A stretch of 64,000 nucleotides of DNA from Escherichia phage EAWsc9: sequence record PQ341120.1. The stretch is one strand, 5' to 3'. The notes below the pieces were generated by a model. That model made no database searches and was not told the DNA's origin. It was given only the letters and a program-made list of their open reading frames with translations. Positions 4,945-41,562 of the stretch are shown here, piece after piece (positions within the stretch are counted from its first letter, which is position 1; each line of letters starts with the position of its first letter). Position numbers and translations under genes: made by a program.

Positions 4945-5267
4945 TTCGCACCCTTAACAATTTTCAGGTCAACAAAACCTTTCTTGCGCTGGGACTTCAT
5001 ACGCTTGATAGCTTTATCAGAAACTTCTTTGTTTTCGCGCAGAAGCGGCAGACCAAACGCTACTACATCAAATTCGTTCAGGATATACTGGACAAGGCTT
5101 TCACGAATACGCGCTTTACCCATTGTCTGACCTTCTGCAATAATCAGTTTCTGTACATCGCCTTCCCACTGGTCCAGAATCTCAGGGGTAACAAAACCAG
5201 ATTTCATCAGAGTGTTAACTTTAGCAAATGCGAAATTAGCGATGATGTTAGTGATAGATGCAGTCAT
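4941..5267 (-). CDS. hypothetical protein
   Basis: 108-aa minus ORF. Confidence 0.35.
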   Translation of the reverse strand: MTASITNIIANFAFAKVNTLMKSGFVTPEILDQWEGDVQKLIIAEGQTMGKARIRESLVQYILNEFDVVAFGLPLLRENKEVSDKAIKRMKSQRKKGFVDLKIVKGAK

Positions 5268-16301: not shown

Positions 16302-16337
16302 TTTATTCTCCAGTATTTGGTAACTCAGTATGGGAAC

Positions 16338-16885: not shown

Positions 16886-16926
16886 TTTATTCTCCGTTTG
16901 TTTATTTGGTAACTCAGTATGAAATC

Positions 16927-17002: not shown

Positions 17003-17749
17003 ATGATTTTATCCGGAAGAACTGTTGATGAACTCAATGAAAAAGTCCAGGCTGCCTTGGCTAATAATTGGTATTTGTTTGGTTCTACTATGGTGTTGCC
17101 GAATACCCCTACAGATAGCAAAGAGCGTTTTTTCCAAACTATGTCCAGCTCGGAAACTCAGATACCGGGCCCGCCTGGGCCAAAAGGAGACCCGGGTGTA
17201 CCAGGACCAAAAGGAGACCCAGGCGGGGATGGAAAGTCTTCTTATCAGATATGGCTTGACTTGGGAAATACAGGAACTGTTGATGATTTTTTAACTGATA
17301 CAGCAGGAAAGAGGGAAAAATCCGAGGTGTTTTGGAGTGGTATAAACGTTCTATTAACTAATGGTACGACTTCAAACATAATTAGTGTTTTAAAGGGGAT
17401 TCCACCGACTGCAGGGACTCTATCTCCGTTTTTTAGAACCACTGATGATAAGTTGTGGCCATATAACCAAGACAGAAGCCTAATGTTTAAACTCAACCTT
17501 ATTGGTAATTTTGCAGGAGCCTCGCAAGCTCGAAGTATAACATTAAATTTCGTTGGAACCAACGGAAACACTTATATACAGAATCGTCCGGAAAATGCTA
17601 CAGATATTTTGTCTTTTACAACGTTCTTTAGCATTGATAAAGATGGGGCAATGGCAACCAATGGTACAGCTATAACTGTTATGCCAAATGGCGGCAACTT
17701 TACAATAACCTCTGCATTGTTAGTAGCCGAACAAACAGTGACTTCATAA
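17003..17749 (+). CDS. collagen-like repeat protein with tail-fibre-type motif and C-terminal globular domain
   Basis: 248 aa; AAAGGAG RBS 8 nt upstream of ATG; GPPGPKGDPGVPGPKGDPGGDG Gly-X-Y repeats followed by GKSSYQIWLDLGNTGTVDDFL; only convincing plus-strand gene in the early block. Confidence 0.6.
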   Translation: MILSGRTVDELNEKVQAALANNWYLFGSTMVLPNTPTDSKERFFQTMSSSETQIPGPPGPKGDPGVPGPKGDPGGDGKSSYQIWLDLGNTGTVDDFLTDTAGKREKSEVFWSGINVLLTNGTTSNIISVLKGIPPTAGTLSPFFRTTDDKLWPYNQDRSLMFKLNLIGNFAGASQARSITLNFVGTNGNTYIQNRPENATDILSFTTFFSIDKDGAMATNGTAITVMPNGGNFTITSALLVAEQTVTS

Positions 17750-32646: not shown

Positions 32647-32656
32647 TTTTTATTCC

Positions 32657-32854
32657 TTAGCATTCGTAAGAGGAGGACACCCAAGAGGTACCACTAATTG
32701 TAATACAACCATTATAAAGCGTGATATGTCGTTCTAAGTCACGAACACCATCAATGTAGATATCAGCTTCTTCGCGTTCTTCTTTACAAATCTGGATAAC
32801 ATTTTCAATAGCTGCCGCGGCAGTACGGATTGCACAATCTAATTCACGAGACAT
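32657..32854 (-). CDS. small protein, C-terminal W-V-S-S-S-x-x-C tail family member C
   Basis: ATG at 32854 behind AAGGAA gives 65 aa; ends ...SGTSWVSSSYEC. Confidence 0.45.
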   Translation of the reverse strand: MSRELDCAIRTAAAAIENVIQICKEEREEADIYIDGVRDLERHITLYNGCITISGTSWVSSSYEC

Positions 32855-32862
32855 AACATTCC

Positions 32863-33144
32863 TTAACATTCAGCAGAAGAGGACACCCAACCACCATTTT
32901 CCAGGTCAGTTGTATAGTCATGAGTATTAACAATAGCCCATTCAGGATGACCATGTTCTTCCCAATGAGCAAGGTCAGCTTTCAGGGCGCCAGGAGAATA
33001 ATAGTCACCGCCCATACCGCGAGCAGGGTATATATTAAAATGAGTCTCATATTTGTCTGCAATTTCCTCGGCACGACGAATAGCTTTATGGATGTCATTT
33101 ACTGCGTTAGCCAGTTCTTTATTTTTACGGTAATCATTCATCAT
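32863..33144 (-). CDS. small protein, C-terminal W-V-S-S-S-x-x-C tail family member B
   Basis: 93 aa; ends ...NGGWVSSSAEC; shares EEIADKY segment with member A. Confidence 0.45.
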   Translation of the reverse strand: MMNDYRKNKELANAVNDIHKAIRRAEEIADKYETHFNIYPARGMGGDYYSPGALKADLAHWEEHGHPEWAIVNTHDYTTDLENGGWVSSSAEC

Positions 33145-33153
33145 AACGTTTCC

Positions 33154-33444
33154 TTAGCACATTGCCGAAGAGGAGACCCAAGCACCAACTGTAACGACAC
33201 CGTTTTCAACTTCACCGCCGTTGTTTTCAATTTCATCTTTAAACCACTGGGAGCACTCATAACCGACAGGATAATATGTACGGCCTGAACCATAATCACC
33301 GGTACCGAATTGGATACCATATTCATCTGCGATTTCTTCACAGTGTTTTTCAATTTCAGAGGTCTTATTTAGAAGAGAATAGATGGCTTTTTCTGCAGAT
33401 TTCTCATCATAATACTTGGGGATAGCAATTTCAATTTTATTCAT
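33154..33444 (-). CDS. small protein, C-terminal W-V-S-S-S-x-x-C tail family member A
   Basis: 96 aa; ends ...VGAWVSSSAMC; AAGGAA RBS. Confidence 0.45.
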   Translation of the reverse strand: MNKIEIAIPKYYDEKSAEKAIYSLLNKTSEIEKHCEEIADEYGIQFGTGDYGSGRTYYPVGYECSQWFKDEIENNGGEVENGVVTVGAWVSSSAMC

Positions 33445-34711: not shown

Positions 34712-35305
34712 TTACTTAAGTGAATTGATGTATTCTTCAATGTCAGCGGACGTGGTATCCACACCAACCTGTGGACCTTTGAAGGTTTCAACACGCATCA
34801 AGGTGTCTTCAATATCAATCTTAGTCAATGCAGCGATTTCAACAACATCATCTGCAGTCGCAATACCCAGGGCAGATACCTTACGGGTTTCGCGGATGTA
34901 TTCCAGTTTAACAGCTAGTTCCTGACGAGAATCATCCAGCTCTTTAACTTTCAATTTAATTTCATTACGCATTTCAACATAATCGTCTGCCTTCTTACGA
35001 AGTTGTTTAGCAGTGCGACGATACAGGAGACCCAGTTTAGCATGGACCTGGACATCCGCACCATCAGCAATCAGTTTGCGGATTTCACGCTCTTTTGAGG
35101 CGGCAAGTTGGTCTTTTTCATTCGCTAACTCGCGGATGCGTTTTTCTTCATTAACAGACTTAACGTGGGCGGTCTGGAGCTCAGTAATCTTGTCAATCAG
35201 GGTAGACGCCGCTTGAGTATATTGGTCTTCAATAGACAGGTTTTTTGCCATTGCAGTACCCAGTTTGGAGCGGATGAATTCAACAAGTTTCTTTAAAGTA
35301 TTCAT
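34712..35305 (-). CDS. coiled-coil protein, possibly PspA/IM30-like
   Basis: 197 aa, long charged heptad-rich helices; similarity to PspA judged by eye only. Confidence 0.35.
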
Positions 35306-35377
35306 GGTATTTCCTTCAGTTGGTTAATGTTTTATTATCCAGGGAACATACTATCATGTTCCCATTAAAGCACTAAT

Positions 35378-35683
35378 TTAGATTTTGTTTTCCTGCACAC
35401 CATAATAAAGTTCATCAGACACAATATCCAGGATGCGGCGAACATATTCATCATGGTATTGGCAGTCAAAATCAAATGCAACAGTAGTTTCCGCTTCACG
35501 AGTGAATTTAACTTGCACATTCAGGTGATTAACAACGTTAGTTAATTTATCAGTAAAGAACTCTTTTGCTACCGCCTGTTGGACTTGCACTTTAAACTTG
35601 GTGTTGCGAATCATATTTTCAGCAGATGCGAAATTACCAGTTTTATCAAAGTCAACAAGCGCCAGGTTGATGATGAATTTCAT
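35378..35683 (-). CDS. hypothetical protein
   Basis: 101 aa; ATG at 35683 behind CACTGGAGAATAAA leader cassette. Confidence 0.35.
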   Translation of the reverse strand: MKFIINLALVDFDKTGNFASAENMIRNTKFKVQVQQAVAKEFFTDKLTNVVNHLNVQVKFTREAETTVAFDFDCQYHDEYVRRILDIVSDELYYGVQENKI

Positions 35684-35724
35684 TTTATTCTCCAGTGTTT
35701 TATTTGGTAACTCAGTATGGAATC

Positions 35725-35754
35725 ATTATGCCTTAAAGCAGGGGGCTTGTATAC
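35725..35754 (-). promoter_or_regulatory. early sigma70-type promoter (-35 GTATACA, 17 bp, -10 CATAAT) with conserved leader
   Basis: plus attatg 35725-35730 and tgtatac 35748-35754; -35 in loop of GGGGG/CCCCC hairpin. Confidence 0.45.
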
Positions 35755-35766
35755 CCCCTTTTTGAA

Positions 35767-36234
35767 TTAAATTTCAAATTCTTTGCGGAAGTTGGAAGCA
35801 TAAGACTGAACTGATGCTTTGTTGAATCCAAACTCACGCACAATCATATCAATAACAGCTCTGCGAGCAGCACCATTAGACATATTAACAGTTTTGAACA
35901 TATCATAGCATAAATCTTTGTTGCTCATACCGGAGCGTTTAGGTGCCTTACGTTCAGCTTTTGGTTCAGCTTTTGGTTCAGCTTTTGGTTCAGCTTTAGG
36001 AGTAGGTTTAACTTCTGGTTTAACCTGTCCATCATTCAGACCTTTAAAAATTTTACCTGCCAGAGTTGCCAGTTTAGCAGCTTCGCCACGAGTGATACCA
36101 AATACTGCCGGGTTAAATGAAATACCTTCAGCTGCCAGACGTTTGAAGAACATACGTGCTGCGGATTGTGCTTCAGCTTCAGAAGAGTTGTTTAATGCCA
36201 GCTTAACGTACTTAACCAGTTTTGAAGTTTTCAT
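35767..36234 (-). CDS. hypothetical protein with (PKAE)4 tandem repeat and conserved C-terminal domain
   Basis: 155 aa; PKAEPKAEPKAEPKAE encoded by 12-nt direct repeats; C-terminal DGAARRAVID...VQSYASNFRK shared with ORF 36317..36742. Confidence 0.45.
   Translation of the reverse strand: MKTSKLVKYVKLALNNSSEAEAQSAARMFFKRLAAEGISFNPAVFGITRGEAAKLATLAGKIFKGLNDGQVKPEVKPTPKAEPKAEPKAEPKAERKAPKRSGMSNKDLCYDMFKTVNMSNGAARRAVIDMIVREFGFNKASVQSYASNFRKEFEI
35953..36000 (-). repeat. four tandem copies of a 12-nt coding repeat (plus-strand ttcagcttttgg)
   Basis: direct repeats read directly from sequence; encode P-K-A-E on the minus strand. Confidence 0.8.
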
Positions 36235-36316
36235 TTTATTCTCCAGTGTTTTATTTGGTAACTCAGTATGGGATAATTATACACTATCCCACCTGGAAGT
36301 AAAACACTTTTCTCAA

Positions 36317-36742
36317 TTATTTTTGAGCTTTGCGGAAGTTGGAAGCATATGACTGAACAACAGTCTTTTTGATATCATAGGTGTTAACCAGAACATCAAT
36401 CAGGGCGCGGCGAGCTGCACCATCTGCCATATCAATTTCTGCAAATGCCTGGAAGCAAATGTCACGAGCATTACCAGATTTGGACTGGATTTTTTCTTCT
36501 TTAACTTCTTCAATTGGGAATTCAATCATTTCAGCTTGGATTAATTCAATGATAGATTCTTTTGACTGTTTGGTGTTTACCTTCAGTTCAGAATTAAGGG
36601 ACTTAGCGATGGCAACAATCTGGGTTGAAGTCAGATGAATAAGTGCATCTTCACGAATGCAGATTTCACATACTTCGTCGGCAACCATTTTGTTAGTGAT
36701 GCGGGTAACAGAGAATGCAGAAGTCAGGGTCAGGAAGTTCAT
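36317..36742 (-). CDS. hypothetical protein, paralog of 35767..36234 C-terminal domain
   Basis: ATG at 36742 behind TTTGGAGAAATAAA gives 141 aa; C-terminus DGAARRALIDVLVNTYDIKKTVVQSYASNFRK. Confidence 0.45.
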   Translation of the reverse strand: MNFLTLTSAFSVTRITNKMVADEVCEICIREDALIHLTSTQIVAIAKSLNSELKVNTKQSKESIIELIQAEMIEFPIEEVKEEKIQSKSGNARDICFQAFAEIDMADGAARRALIDVLVNTYDIKKTVVQSYASNFRKAQK

Positions 36743-36793
36743 TTTATTTCTCCAAAGTTTTGTTTGATTCAGTGTGTAACTCAGTATGGAATC

Positions 36794-36823
36794 ATTATGC
36801 ATCCAGTCAATTCGGATGTACAC
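36794..36823 (-). promoter_or_regulatory. early sigma70-type promoter with conserved leader
   Basis: plus attatg 36794-36799 and tgtacac 36817-36823, 17-bp spacer. Confidence 0.45.
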
Positions 36824-36841
36824 TACTTTTTGAAGAAATAT

Positions 36842-36868
36842 TAAAAATAAACCCGCCGAAGCGGGTTT
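36842..36868 (-). terminator. intrinsic terminator
   Basis: minus strand AAACCCGC-TTCG-GCGGGTTT followed by ATTTTTA. Confidence 0.55.
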
Positions 36869-36870
36869 GA

Positions 36871-37425
36871 TTAGTTCTTATAAAAGCGGAACGGATTTAT
36901 ATGAAAGGCGAGCATAGCCTTAGGGATTGGTCGGGACAGAAGACTCTTGAGCTTCCAGCCACAATAAACACGCAGATAAAAGGTGATTCCACCGACCTTA
37001 AGATAAGGAACAGAAGCAAAAACACCCCAGGCATTATCCGTCCACATCCAGAGCCAGCCATGGTGAGCTTTGTCTGGGGAGCCGGATTCAACATCAGGAT
37101 TACCTTTATAATGGAATTCTGAATTGCAATCACGACCAAGCTTGTGGTAAGCAAAATTGTATGCTTTATTTCGCCAGAGCCAGGCTACTCGTTGGAAGTA
37201 AACACCTAACGGCCATTTTCGGATTTTTGACCAACGTTCGACATGACCCCGGTCACCATCAATCGGATTGTCATATGTCATCATCCAATCAAATCCGAAC
37301 GGAAGTTTACCAGTCTTTTTATTATGGAATGGAACTACAAATGGAGCCAGGATAACGGCCAGAATCATGGAGATAAAATCCAGCGGAACTAACAGAATCC
37401 AACTCAAATATTTTAACAGTTTCAT
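36871..37425 (-). CDS. hypothetical membrane-anchored protein, Trp-rich
   Basis: ATG at 37425 (AAAGAG RBS) gives 184 aa; N-terminal TM helix LSWILLVPLDFISMILAVILAPFVV; flanked by terminators on both sides. Confidence 0.45.
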   Translation of the reverse strand: MKLLKYLSWILLVPLDFISMILAVILAPFVVPFHNKKTGKLPFGFDWMMTYDNPIDGDRGHVERWSKIRKWPLGVYFQRVAWLWRNKAYNFAYHKLGRDCNSEFHYKGNPDVESGSPDKAHHGWLWMWTDNAWGVFASVPYLKVGGITFYLRVYCGWKLKSLLSRPIPKAMLAFHINPFRFYKN

Positions 37426-37447
37426 ACGTTTCTCTTTAGTTGATTTA

Positions 37448-38386: not shown

Positions 38387-38463
38387 TGGTCGGGGTGGTG
38401 GGATTCTAACCCACAACCTACGGTTTAGAAGACCGTTGCTCTATACAATTGAGCTACACCCCG
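38387..38463 (-). tRNA. tRNA-Arg (anticodon UCU)
   Basis: hand-folded cloverleaf: acceptor CGGGGTG/CACCCCG, D stem GCTC/GAGC, anticodon stem ACGGT/ACCGT with loop CTTCTAA, T stem GTGGG/CCCAC, encoded CCA; T loop TTAGAAT and D loop without GG are atypical. Confidence 0.75.
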
Positions 38464-38539
38464 GGTGGCCCCATCCGGACTTGAACCGGAAACCTGCCAG
38501 TTATGAGCCGGATGCTCTAACCAATTGAGCTACAGGGCC
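38464..38539 (-). tRNA. tRNA with anticodon CAU (Ile-lysidine or Met type)
   Basis: hand-folded: acceptor GGCCCTG/TGGGGCC, D arm GCTC-AATTGGTTA-GAGC, anticodon loop CTCATAA, T arm TCCGG-TTCAAGT-CCGGA; one mismatch in anticodon stem; abuts tRNA-Arg. Confidence 0.7.
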
Positions 38540-38934: not shown

Positions 38935-39417
38935 TTAAAGCATATCAAGCGCTTTAACAGATGGGATTTGGATTTCTTCTTCGATTATATATAGCTTAAC
39001 ATAAGAAATTACACGCATGAAATCGCCATCATATTCGCAAGCCATACCAAGGAGCTCAGTAAGGGCTTCATTCAAATAGTATGCTTCTTCATCATTATTC
39101 AGCAAGGCTTCTAAGTCTTGGATACCAAGAACTTTATCCAAAAATTCATAAGTCAACTGGCCAGATTTTACGCCAGATGCAATGTGGGCGATAACCAAGT
39201 GTTTAACTACATCCCATTCTGAATTACCACATTTATTGCAGTTATTGCAATGCGAACCATGGAAAAGTTCCAGGATATATTTGTACTGTTGGATTTCTTG
39301 TTCTTCTACACCAAATACCGTTTGGGTTTTATAGTTGTCACCATCATTTTCCCAGGTTTCAATTTCAATCACATAACCTTTAGGGATGGTCTGACCAAAT
39401 TTGATATTCATTCGCAT
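38935..39417 (-). CDS. hypothetical protein
   Basis: 160 aa; CNNCNKCG cluster. Confidence 0.4.
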   Translation of the reverse strand: MRMNIKFGQTIPKGYVIEIETWENDGDNYKTQTVFGVEEQEIQQYKYILELFHGSHCNNCNKCGNSEWDVVKHLVIAHIASGVKSGQLTYEFLDKVLGIQDLEALLNNDEEAYYLNEALTELLGMACEYDGDFMRVISYVKLYIIEEEIQIPSVKALDML

Positions 39418-40041: not shown

Positions 40042-40296
40042 TTATTTTTTAGGGATACGATAGTAACGCATCTCAACATCTTTCTGCTTGTGCCACTTTT
40101 TGATAAGGTCTTCAGAACCTTTAATGGTAACGATGTCATAGCGACCATCATGCGATACTTCAGCACTTAACTGCATGAAGTTGTCTAGTGAACGGCGCAA
40201 TTCCTCATTAGAAAAACTACCACGCGGGGAACCAACATAAGCAAACTCAACTTTTGCATCTGCGGCTTCGTTAATAAATTCTTGATAAGTTTTCAT
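40042..40296 (-). CDS. internal-protein-like protein with capsid-targeting sequence
   Basis: 84 aa starting MKTYQEFINEAADAK. Confidence 0.55.
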   Translation of the reverse strand: MKTYQEFINEAADAKVEFAYVGSPRGSFSNEELRRSLDNFMQLSAEVSHDGRYDIVTIKGSEDLIKKWHKQKDVEMRYYRIPKK

Positions 40297-40352
40297 GTTG
40301 TCTCCAGTAGTTGATGGGATAATTATACTGCAGTTATCCCATCGCGTATACT

Positions 40353-40595
40353 TTATTTTAAGTCTTCCAGACGTTTTTTCATCTTGGTGCCATTCTTAGC
40401 AATTTCGCCAGCATCAGAACAAAGAGCGAGGAGAGCTTTAACTTTACCCTGGTCGCCTTTAAAAGATGATGCATCTACAGAATCAGCAAGTTCTTTGATA
40501 CGTGCAAACAGGCGCTCTGCTTCAGCAAGGGCTTGGCCAAGTTTAACTTCCATACCATGGGAAGATTCTGTTATAAATGTTTGATAAGTTTTCAT
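40353..40595 (-). CDS. internal-protein-like protein with capsid-targeting sequence
   Basis: ATG at 40595 behind GGAGA gives 80 aa starting MKTYQTFITESS. Confidence 0.55.
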   Translation of the reverse strand: MKTYQTFITESSHGMEVKLGQALAEAERLFARIKELADSVDASSFKGDQGKVKALLALCSDAGEIAKNGTKMKKRLEDLK

Positions 40596-40611
40596 GTTGT
40601 CTCCAAGCCAT

Positions 40612-40632
40612 AAAAAGGGGATAATTATCCCC
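40612..40632 (-). terminator. intrinsic terminator between two internal-protein genes
   Basis: palindrome GGGGATAATTATCCCC followed by TTTTTAT on the minus strand. Confidence 0.45.
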
Positions 40633-40640
40633 ATTTGTTA

Positions 40641-40940
40641 TTACATCTTACTACCACGAATTACGCCATAAGCGGCGAAGTCGTCAGTGATATTTTTAGG
40701 GGTGTTCTTACCAGTTTCAATGAAGGCAATGCTTGATTTCTGACTAAAAGAGGTAATTTTGTTATAGTTAGAGTCAAGGAAGGTATAACCATTTTTACGC
40801 AACTGGTCAAAGTCTTCAGCGTCGCCTTTACCTTTGAAGTCAACCCATTTGTAGGTGTTTTTCTTCTGAAGGCCCAGAGGCCAGGTTTTTGCTTCTGCTA
40901 GGTAATTGTTTTCTACCAAAAATTCATGAAAAGTTTGCAT
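40641..40940 (-). CDS. internal-protein-like protein with capsid-targeting sequence
   Basis: 99 aa starting MQTFHEFLVENN; shares GDAEDF...NGY[ST]F block with ORF 27106..27366. Confidence 0.5.
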   Translation of the reverse strand: MQTFHEFLVENNYLAEAKTWPLGLQKKNTYKWVDFKGKGDAEDFDQLRKNGYTFLDSNYNKITSFSQKSSIAFIETGKNTPKNITDDFAAYGVIRGSKM

Positions 40941-40948
40941 TTGAAATC

Positions 40949-41221
40949 CTATTTTAAATAAATTGCATATTTTTTATAACCAGCCGTCTCATGACGGAGA
41001 CCCTTGTCATTGGCAAAACGCTCAATGTTATTAATTTGGTTCTGGTCAAGTTCTGAAATGTCAAACGCGAAAAAGTTGCGTTTGTTGCCAATTGTTATAT
41101 GGTCAGTTAAGTCAATGCTATACAGGTGATTGATATTGTCAATCATAGCTTTGACCGCTTTACTAATTTTTACTTCTTCATTCAGTTGTGACTCGTTGAA
41201 AAATTCATTGAAAGTTTTCAT
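40949..41221 (-). CDS. internal-protein-like protein with capsid-targeting sequence
   Basis: 90 aa starting MKTFNEFFNESQ. Confidence 0.5.
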   Translation of the reverse strand: MKTFNEFFNESQLNEEVKISKAVKAMIDNINHLYSIDLTDHITIGNKRNFFAFDISELDQNQINNIERFANDKGLRHETAGYKKYAIYLK

Positions 41222-41229
41222 AAGAAACC

Positions 41230-41562
41230 TTATTTATAAAGTTTTGCCAGTTCTTTACGTCCGCGAGCAGACATAATAAATTGTTCATCGCCAATTTTAA
41301 AATAAGCCATACCGCCGTCAACAGCGATACCAATTTCTTTAGTACCTTCTTTGCCTTTCCACTTGCCACCAGATTTCAGGACAGCTTCAACTGCAGCTTT
41401 GGAATATTTGGACGTTTGAAAACGTTCATTACCAATCTGAAAGAAAACACCATCTGCATTTTTGGTTAAACCAAATTTCAGAGAGCCTTCACTATCATCA
41501 ATTGATTTGGTCTCATTGATGGCGGATTCGGCTAAAAACTCGTTGTAAGTTTTGATGTTCAT
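41230..41562 (-). CDS. internal-protein-like protein with capsid-targeting sequence
   Basis: 110 aa starting MNIKTYNEFLAESA. Confidence 0.5.
   Translation of the reverse strand: MNIKTYNEFLAESAINETKSIDDSEGSLKFGLTKNADGVFFQIGNERFQTSKYSKAAVEAVLKSGGKWKGKEGTKEIGIAVDGGMAYFKIGDEQFIMSARGRKELAKLYK

Follow-up and report, generated by a model that had tools for sequence, protein, structure and literature searches.

Two adjacent genes of Escherichia phage EAWsc9 share a predicted three-helix, homeodomain-like C-terminal domain

The stretch of Escherichia phage EAWsc9 analysed here (PQ341120.1; 64,000 nucleotides, hereafter the window) carries two adjacent genes on its minus strand, A and B, whose products have one C-terminal domain in common. 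Gene B (36317–36742) starts with an ATG at 36742 and encodes 141 amino acids, and gene A (35767–36234) encodes 155. Both are real genes under purifying selection. The shared domain, about 50 residues in its folded part, is predicted to form a three-helix bundle of homeodomain-like geometry. We favour, with a probability of about 0.5, the reading that it is a homeodomain-like nucleic-acid-reading head, through which N-terminal modules of different kinds would reach one common target at an early stage of infection. A preliminary description of the locus had recognized the adjacent paralogous pair at these positions, but it missed that the genes lie on the minus strand, that the module recurs in other phage lineages, that a further paralogue lies beside motA and that the promoter cassettes match a described type.

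The shared C-terminal domain

BLASTP similarity between A and B is confined to their C-terminal parts (36 identities in 86 positions, E=7e-20), which bears out the earlier claim of a shared C-terminal domain behind different N-terminal halves. A hidden Markov model (HMM) of the domain finds exactly two copies in the six-frame translation of the window (E~1e-29), the next match having E=0.5. The copy in A spans residues 104–155 (35770–35925, minus strand), with helices at 105–113, 121–135 and 139–153; that in B spans residues 91–141 (36320–36472, minus strand), with helices at 92–100, 108–122 and 126–140. AlphaFold predicts the three helices in both proteins, with a predicted local distance difference test score (pLDDT) for this block of 81–93 in A and 85–88 in B. 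In an alignment of 15 domains the invariant columns are a C and an F (i, i+4), an R, and V-Q-S-Y-x-S-N-x-R. The last of these belongs to helix 3, VQSYASN[FY]RK, the polar face of which is nearly invariant: on the periodicity of a helix, one side would display the invariant Q, S, S, N, R and K and the opposite side the hydrophobic V, Y, A and F. Invariant exposed polar residues across paralogues that are otherwise about 50% identical argue for a conserved ligand-binding surface.

In the predicted models the bundle shows the superposable helix 2–turn–helix 3 geometry of the homeodomain-like fold, a fold that also serves many bacterial and phage DNA-binding domains. When the domain profile was compared with PDB sequences, the best match was the ZFHX3 homeodomain (2da3, E=0.0034), followed by the TetR-type regulator IcaR (0.11) and the LMX1A and Lhx4 homeodomains (0.15–0.2); five of the six matches are homeodomains, and the sixth is the TetR-type DNA-binding regulator. 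The alignment runs over helix 2–turn–helix 3 and pairs '...R..id.Lv...gl.krVVQSYASNfRk' with the homeodomain '...R..ld.ia...GL.KRVVQVWFQNtRa'. The same register was returned by hhalign against eight manually entered homeodomain sequences (P=6e-4, probability 28%). In the usual homeodomain numbering, the invariant N and R of the family would fall on N51 and R53 and its Y on W48 in this register; the core positions C/L16, F20 and V45 would correspond as well, the C and F of helix 1 being spaced i, i+4. The phage domain differs from homeodomains in having A for F49 and S for Q50, in lacking a long basic N-terminal arm and in lying under every Pfam homeodomain or helix-turn-helix (HTH) threshold. 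The BEN domain (Drosophila Bsg25A/Elba, BEND6, BANP, NACC1) resembles it in fold alone, being about twice as long, with an identity of 4–14% and no sequence-level match. The preliminary description had named a match to a well-characterised family as the finding that would count against it; at the sequence level the domain has none, yet it is predicted to adopt a known fold, the homeodomain-like one.

Several observations weigh against a DNA-reading head. The sequence similarity to homeodomains is marginal, as the E value of the best PDB match and the low hhalign probability show; Pfam gave no homeodomain or HTH family for the 15 isolated domains even at E<=10, and no curated HTH or homeodomain model in Pfam or NCBIfam matched full-length A or B. 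In the B-type proteins of Rosemountvirus and Loughboroughvirus the N of the motif is a Y (VVQSYMSYYR). The B protein of the window is slightly acidic overall (pI 5.5), and its shared domain carries a net charge of just +2. T-even-type DNA contains modified cytosines, so that reading through the major groove would be restricted to A/T-rich sites or to host DNA. The early expression assumed for both genes comes from the sigma70-type consensus of their promoters. In phage VR7 only 68 aa of A are left, and Yersinia phage P8 has a B of 40 aa, which indicates that neither gene is essential.

The fold also matches non-DNA-binding proteins at similar Z, a point in favour of a possible, though doubtful, alternative: the domain may be a protein–protein docking module whose invariant helix binds one highly conserved host protein, such as RNA polymerase or another core machine, or a phage partner. 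The different N-terminal domains would then deliver different effects, in host take-over or counter-defence, as early 'monkey-wrench' proteins do. Small early T4 proteins commonly bind host proteins (AsiA, Alt, ModA; PMC2988021), B is acidic, and the dispensability of A and B in some isolates is usual for accessory take-over or anti-defence genes. The make-up of the PDB match list speaks against docking, as does a homeodomain register that keeps two DNA-contact residues; A, moreover, is strongly basic, and nothing in PADLOC's defence and anti-defence models resembles these proteins.

Searched exhaustively with the HMM, 1.84 billion representative proteins gave 13 clusters at E<=1e-10 and no further credible match, which makes the family tiny and restricted to virulent phages. 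Its members include stand-alone domains of 69–74 aa (for example P0032 and P0036). A prophage or host origin finds no support, as the 1.84 billion representatives contain no distant bacterial relatives. Among PHROG families, A matches phrog_18416 (E=3.2e-89, residues 1–155 on profile positions 1–147 of 147) and B matches phrog_9997 (E=1.7e-69, residues 1–141 on positions 3–143 of 145), and both cross-match phrog_17275, the stand-alone domain, through their C-termini. All three are classed as 'unknown function', with no links among them in the PHROG classification, and they can now be annotated as one domain family.

Selection and age of the gene pair

Over the 1.7 kb around the locus, 34 sequenced phages that infect Escherichia, Shigella and Yersinia show 90–98% identity, with ECML-359 as the best match (98.2%). 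The relatives that have a genus assigned belong to Gaprivervirus (Straboviridae, T4-like; the SP18/VR7 group), in which A is the orthologue of SP18gp147 and B that of SP18gp148 and VR7ORF147c. In pairwise comparisons of 21 relatives with the window, the ratio of nonsynonymous to synonymous substitution rates (dN/dS) is 0.03–0.22 for A and 0.03–0.25 for B. Variable codons with synonymous changes only stand to amino-acid-changing ones as 28:13 in A and 27:8 in B. Nineteen homologues of B were collected, and both families persist at 45–60% identity in metagenomic phages.

That the resemblance of A and B is a by-product of recent duplication or gene conversion, with open reading frames (ORFs), or at least a repeat in A, that have no selected function, is very improbable. 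A 31-nt stretch at the 3´ ends of A and B is 97% identical in the window and could be read in this sense, as could the breakage of each gene in one isolate and the recombinogenic nature of the region, with cassette-bounded insertions and deletions among relatives and an A leader converted in two isolates. General gene conversion behind the 31-nt identity is ruled out by four other genomes, in which the shared peptide motif is kept with several synonymous codon differences. Outside the motif the A and B domains are about 50% identical at the protein level, which indicates an old duplication. In distant phages the families stand at 35–60% identity with the motif intact and the codons synonymously different, and every length variant of the repeat in A is in frame. 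The dN/dS ratios of A and B, both far under 1, and the conservation of the families largely refute this reading.

N-terminal domains and net charge

The N-terminal halves of A and B are unrelated. Residues 1–68 of A (36031–36234, minus strand) form a basic helical domain with helices at 3–15, 19–36 and 49–58 in the AlphaFold model, followed by an inter-domain spacer, residues 69–103 (35926–36030, minus strand), that is rich in Pro, Lys, Ala and Glu and predicted to be disordered. Residues 1–76 of B (36515–36742, minus strand) comprise three short strands and helices; within a helix–extended loop–helix at residues 39–74, the loop S.N.EL.VN.KQSK is the most conserved B-specific segment. A SAP or HeH (Rho_N-like) motif was considered for this domain.

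The N-terminus of A contains a motif, KLALNNSSEAEAQSAARMFFKRL, that aligns to positions 12–35 of the 40 positions of the DUF2786 profile (PF10979), a helical motif of about 40 residues found at the N-terminus of many phage and plasmid proteins and of unknown function. The A protein of the window scores 14.2 bits (E=0.044), below the cut-off of 23.9 bits; sub-threshold matches occur in five of ten A-type N-terminal domains (best E=0.014), and every A-type score stays under the curated cut-off. Because the function of DUF2786 is itself unknown, the match is mechanistically uninformative, and the literature on DUF2786 gave no functional information. The PDB profile search returned insignificant matches only for the N-terminal domain of A (T7 Gp2, E=0.46) and none for that of B, for which Pfam also gave nothing. 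Pfam, NCBIfam and PADLOC gave nothing over threshold for A, B or the gene downstream of A. Weak matches to Trypan_PARP (E=0.012), PBP_like and a CT847 effector were dismissed as low-complexity or chance.

The two proteins are of opposite character in charge. A has a net charge of +11 to +13 and a pI of about 10 in every lineage, and B is neutral to acidic, with a pI of 5.5–6.6 across lineages; the shared domain carries +2 in both.

Distribution of the module and a third paralogue

A-type and B-type genes occur together in five settings: Gaprivervirus; a second T4-like metagenomic contig with the same gene order as the window (DUF7338 gene, then B and A, then a small gene and an e.6 homologue); Morganella phage MP1 (Gualtarvirus), in the order A, one gene, B; Erwinia phage RF1, of 46 kb; and metagenomic phages of about 45 kb with Terminase_6 and Phage_portal_3 genes, in the order B, small ORF, A. 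In the ~45-kb phages and Erwinia phage RF1, B and A form a short operon around one unrelated ORF, divergent from the flanking genes; it lies near terminase and portal genes at 5001–6266 of contig L071 and 4704–6176 of L074. In Erwinia phage RF1 the intervening ORF has 167 aa; an HNH-like identity was considered for it and dropped, as Pfam gave no confirmation. An IMG/VR scan with protein A yielded three true loci; the other 47 matches were low-complexity ones to the P/K/A/E spacer and were disregarded. The A/B pair is thus a conserved module that is mobile between T4-like genera and unrelated phages of about 46 kb.

In tblastn searches, A-type genes appear only in genomes that also carry a B-type gene. 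B-type genes stand alone in about 60 phage records (Rosemountvirus, Loughboroughvirus and the Acinetobacter phages ZZ1 and 133); in Rosemountvirus and Loughboroughvirus the gene lies near the start of an operon of small ORFs after a large intergenic region. The F/Y residue of SN[F/Y]RK is identical between A and B in all five genomes with both genes, which is weak evidence because these represent perhaps three independent lineages.

It is unlikely, in our view, that A and B, perhaps with the stand-alone copy, hetero-oligomerise through the domain, with one paralogue modulating or antagonising its partner. Five lineages have the pair, A was never found without B, the two net charges are opposite in every lineage, the F/Y position is matched within each genome and stand-alone copies exist (P0032, P0036 and SP18gp274), all of which would suit such an arrangement. 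The many records with B alone do not, nor do isolates that retain one intact member (VR7, Yersinia phage P8), and invariant residues that are polar and lie on one helix face would be unusual for a dimer core.

A third paralogue of 71 aa (SP18gp274/VR7ORF277c, phrog_17275) lies outside the window, at 164095–164310 of SP18 (L079 2501–2716). It is located between gene 52 and motA, ends 3 bp upstream of motA and has ndd, arn and asiA nearby, and tblastn finds it in 33 of 33 complete Gaprivervirus genomes. A Foldseek search of BFVD returned homologues of unknown function only, the stand-alone VR7ORF277c among them. The surroundings of this copy (motA, ndd, asiA) are a region of take-over and transcription genes. 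Like the joint retention of A and B and their matched F/Y position, this speaks for a common target and linked function under the preferred reading; the location also favours docking to a protein. The spread of the family over phages of Escherichia, Morganella, Erwinia, Salmonella and Acinetobacter is a further point for docking, since an invariant surface in phages of five host genera would fit a universally conserved host target.

A more specific form of the preferred reading is improbable as it stands: A, B and the motA-side copy might be sequence-specific DNA-binding regulators, autoregulatory or concerned with early shut-off, that read one site with their common invariant helix, for example the leader or spacer of cassette-type early promoters or a host promoter, and so switch off or re-programme early transcription. 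In T4, neither deletion of modA nor loss of AsiA explains the shut-off of early transcription (PMC2988021); if this form were true, the family would be a candidate for the early-promoter shut-off factor of T4-like phages, carried on a mobile promoter-plus-gene module.

Promoter and leader cassettes

A 52-nt direct repeat stands before B, before A and before the gene downstream of A, with 69%, 96% and 100% identity to the reference copy, respectively. The early promoter and leader cassette that had been noticed ahead of each gene of the pair therefore belongs to a three-copy family that includes the downstream gene. All three copies are on the minus strand. The B cassette (36743–36822) consists of TGTACA-17-CATAAT (36822–36794), the leader box CCATACTGAGTTAC (36776–36789) and a GGAG Shine-Dalgarno sequence (36750–36753). 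The A cassette (36235–36303) has TTTACT-16-TATAAT (36303–36276), which fits 10 of 12 positions of the sigma70 consensus, the leader box at 36258–36271 and GGAG at 36241–36244. The third cassette (35684–35759), which is the downstream edge of the A module, has TATACA-17-CATAAT (35753–35725) and the leader box at 35707–35720. GGAG lies 7–8 nt before the ATG.

The box CCATACTGAGTTAC has seven matches in the window at <=2 mismatches, against 0.3 expected; five are minus-strand cassettes (16320, 16909, 35707, 36258 and 36776), and those at 39214 and 46529 are not cassettes. The copies at 16320–16333 and 16909–16922 (minus strand) precede unrelated small genes. BLAST with the 51-nt cassette finds 9–14 places per complete Gaprivervirus genome and 1–4 in Morganella and Providencia phages. 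A leader box CCATACTGAGTTA(C/A)C also precedes A, B and their neighbours in Morganella phage MP1 and contig L070, and different genera thus have in common about 20 nt of the transcribed leader.

T4 early promoters are strong and of the sigma70 type, and the T4 nuclease RegB cuts some early mRNAs inside the Shine-Dalgarno sequence (PMC2988021). PeSLs are short cassettes of a sigma70-type early promoter and a stem-loop in the hyperplastic regions of T4-type phages, where they mediate modular shuffling (Arbiol et al., 2010, PMC2839356; Comeau et al., 2014, PMC4122927). The cassettes of the window agree with them as conserved, predicted early-promoter units repeated before small ORFan genes, and the breakpoints of insertions, deletions and replacements between close relatives fall in the cassettes. 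A G5-loop-C5 stem-loop at 35740–35759, overlapping the −35 element of the third cassette, is of the RB49/phi1 type described in PMC4122927, and another stem-loop (36848–36869) lies upstream of the B cassette. The likeness has limits: the conserved part here includes about 40 nt of transcribed leader (CCATACTGAGTTACCAAATAAA...GGAG), and a stem-loop is absent from the A cassette, with none between B and the A promoter. Rfam matched no known RNA family in 35300–37000.

Among the relatives, 11 of 22 carry a 98-aa gene with its own cassette between B and A. The downstream gene is missing in RZ, DK-13 and VR7, and another gene takes its place in contig L070. The leader box is the exact point at which sequence type switches among the relatives. 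In its 3´ part (AAATAAAACACTGGAGAATAAA, 36235–36260, minus strand) the A leader is identical to that of the downstream gene and shares this form with ECML-359 only; the other 21 relatives have AAATAAACAAACGGGATAATAAA there, with GGGA instead of GGAG as Shine-Dalgarno sequence. A short conversion tract from one cassette to another seems to have altered GGGA to GGAG. The locus is a clean natural example of cassette-mediated (PeSL-type) module shuffling.

The spacer of the B promoter (36794–36822, minus strand) contains AATTGA, whose distance to the −35 element is constant among Gaprivervirus, contig L070 and the unrelated Erwinia phage RF1; Acinetobacter phage ZZ1 has GGTTGA in its place (compared stretches: L070 2724–2878, L074 4525–4703 and L078 1807–1994). 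In the window AATTGA also supplies the −35-like element of a promoter-like TTGACT-16-CATACT that overlaps the B promoter. An operator, a second promoter and shared ancestry are all conceivable explanations.

A coding repeat of variable copy number

The spacer of A contains a 12-nt tandem repeat of four units (35953–36000, minus strand; repeat family D3) that encodes (PKAE)4, residues 79–94. Tandem Repeats Finder reports a period of 12 with 3.8 copies at 100% match over 35952–35997. On the coding strand CCT AAA GCT GAA is followed by three CCA AAA GCT GAA units (CCAAAAGCTGAA), so that the four exact repeats of the preliminary description hold for the peptide, while the DNA has three exact units and one synonymous variant. 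The pLDDT of A falls below 50 at residues 70–99, between the well-predicted domains, and orthologues in other phages have a non-repetitive P/K/A/E-rich spacer of differing length and sequence at the same position, in agreement with the flexible linker that had been proposed. The TonB EP/KP region and the procyclin EP repeats are likewise low-complexity, charge-balanced, proline-rich tandem units between folded domains; the similarity is one of composition without homology, and the tract of A has just 1–4 units.

We counted PK[AT]E units in 22 related loci besides the window. Four units occur in the window only, 19 relatives have two (three of them with PKTE units), ECML-359 and TH54 have one, and gene A is broken in VR7; TH40 additionally lacks one adjacent 12-nt KPEV unit. 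The tract is thus length-variable in related isolates, with 1, 2 or 4 units and every variant in frame, as its description as a slippage-prone site had led one to expect. Gene A of ECML-359 differs from that of the window by one synonymous substitution, yet it has one unit against four, which indicates that copy number shifts faster than point mutations accumulate. The length of (PKAE)n would change when the 12-nt units slip during replication or recombine unequally. A collection of 15 billion proteins does not contain the exact 155-aa protein, and its cluster members there have 143, 147 or 164 aa; calling the 147-aa protein from an ATG further upstream, within the promoter, gives the 164-aa form. 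For a coding 12-nt repeat whose copy number outpaces point mutation, too, the locus provides a clean case in nature.

Neighbouring genes and other features of the window

In SP18 the counterpart of the locus lies between e.6 and the tRNA genes, and SP18gp146–148 are all annotated as 'hypothetical protein'. The A/B locus is part of the Gaprivervirus hyperplastic region between these two landmarks. The gene downstream of A (35378–35683, minus strand; 101 aa, SP18gp146/RB49p198-like, phrog_7474) does not contain the shared domain, as judged with the domain profile on the six-frame translation of the window. Beyond it lies the e.6 homologue (34712–35305, minus strand). Upstream of B, a DUF7338 gene (36871–37431, minus strand) ends at a GC-rich, terminator-like stem-loop, AAACCCGC-TTCG-GCGGGTTT (36848–36869), which has T-runs on both strands and is the upstream edge of the B module. 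The DUF7338 gene is named 'holin' and the e.6 homologue 'host specificity protein' in the P8 and UPEC07 records, and both are 'hypothetical' in others; the names look like unsupported automatic annotation. The only tRNA genes found, tRNA-Arg(TCT) and tRNA-Met(CAT), abut directly at 38387–38539 (minus strand). At the corresponding position of SP18 there are three, for Arg, Asn and Met, so that the isolate appears to lack tRNA-Asn.

Five tandem small genes of 84–110 aa at 40042–41562 (minus strand), adjoining 57B, have similar starts: MKTYQEFINE, (MGIIIPFLWLGDN)MKTYQTFITE, MQTFHEFLVE, MKTFNEFFNE and MNIKTYNEFLAE. Their conserved 5´ ends constitute repeat family D1. The starts resemble the capsid-targeting sequence of T4 internal proteins, MKTYQEFIAE, and the genes may be an expanded internal-protein array. 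A 248-aa ORF at 17003–17749 (plus strand), on the strand opposite to its neighbours, encodes a collagen-like run of Gly-X-Y (GPPGPKGDPGVPGPKGDPGGDG). At 32652–33181 a 33-nt unit, ATTCCTTAGCATTCGTAAGAGGAGGACACCCAA, is present three times, with 70–100% identity and a spacing of 206–291 nt; the copies probably represent the conserved ends of small paralogues arranged in tandem in the e.x region.

Discussion

Under the preferred reading, A and B would be non-essential early genes, each transcribed from its own sigma70-type early promoter and leader cassette. Their products would be modular, with distinct N-terminal domains, a spacer and one shared three-helix homeodomain-like domain of about 50 residues; A would contribute a basic DUF2786-like helical domain and B an acidic one of strands and helices. 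Helix 3 is the most likely recognition helix and may lead A, B and the motA-adjacent paralogue to one and the same ligand, most probably nucleic acid, early in infection during host take-over or the regulation of early expression. We infer the early timing, the nucleic-acid binding and the common target from promoter consensus, predicted fold and conservation.

ORFan early genes with regulatory cassettes and a low-complexity linker are ordinary for a T4-like hyperplastic region. What is modestly new relative to existing annotation is a previously unlinked domain family, a two-gene module that recurs across unrelated virulent phages and a third copy beside motA. If the domain does read DNA, it would define a small, phage-restricted family of early regulators with three paralogues per Gaprivervirus genome, one of them beside motA, and the same module would have been exchanged between T4-like phages and unrelated virulent phages of 46–53 kb. 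The family would then offer a handle on the role of accessory early genes in hyperplastic regions, and it might bear on the shut-off of early transcription.

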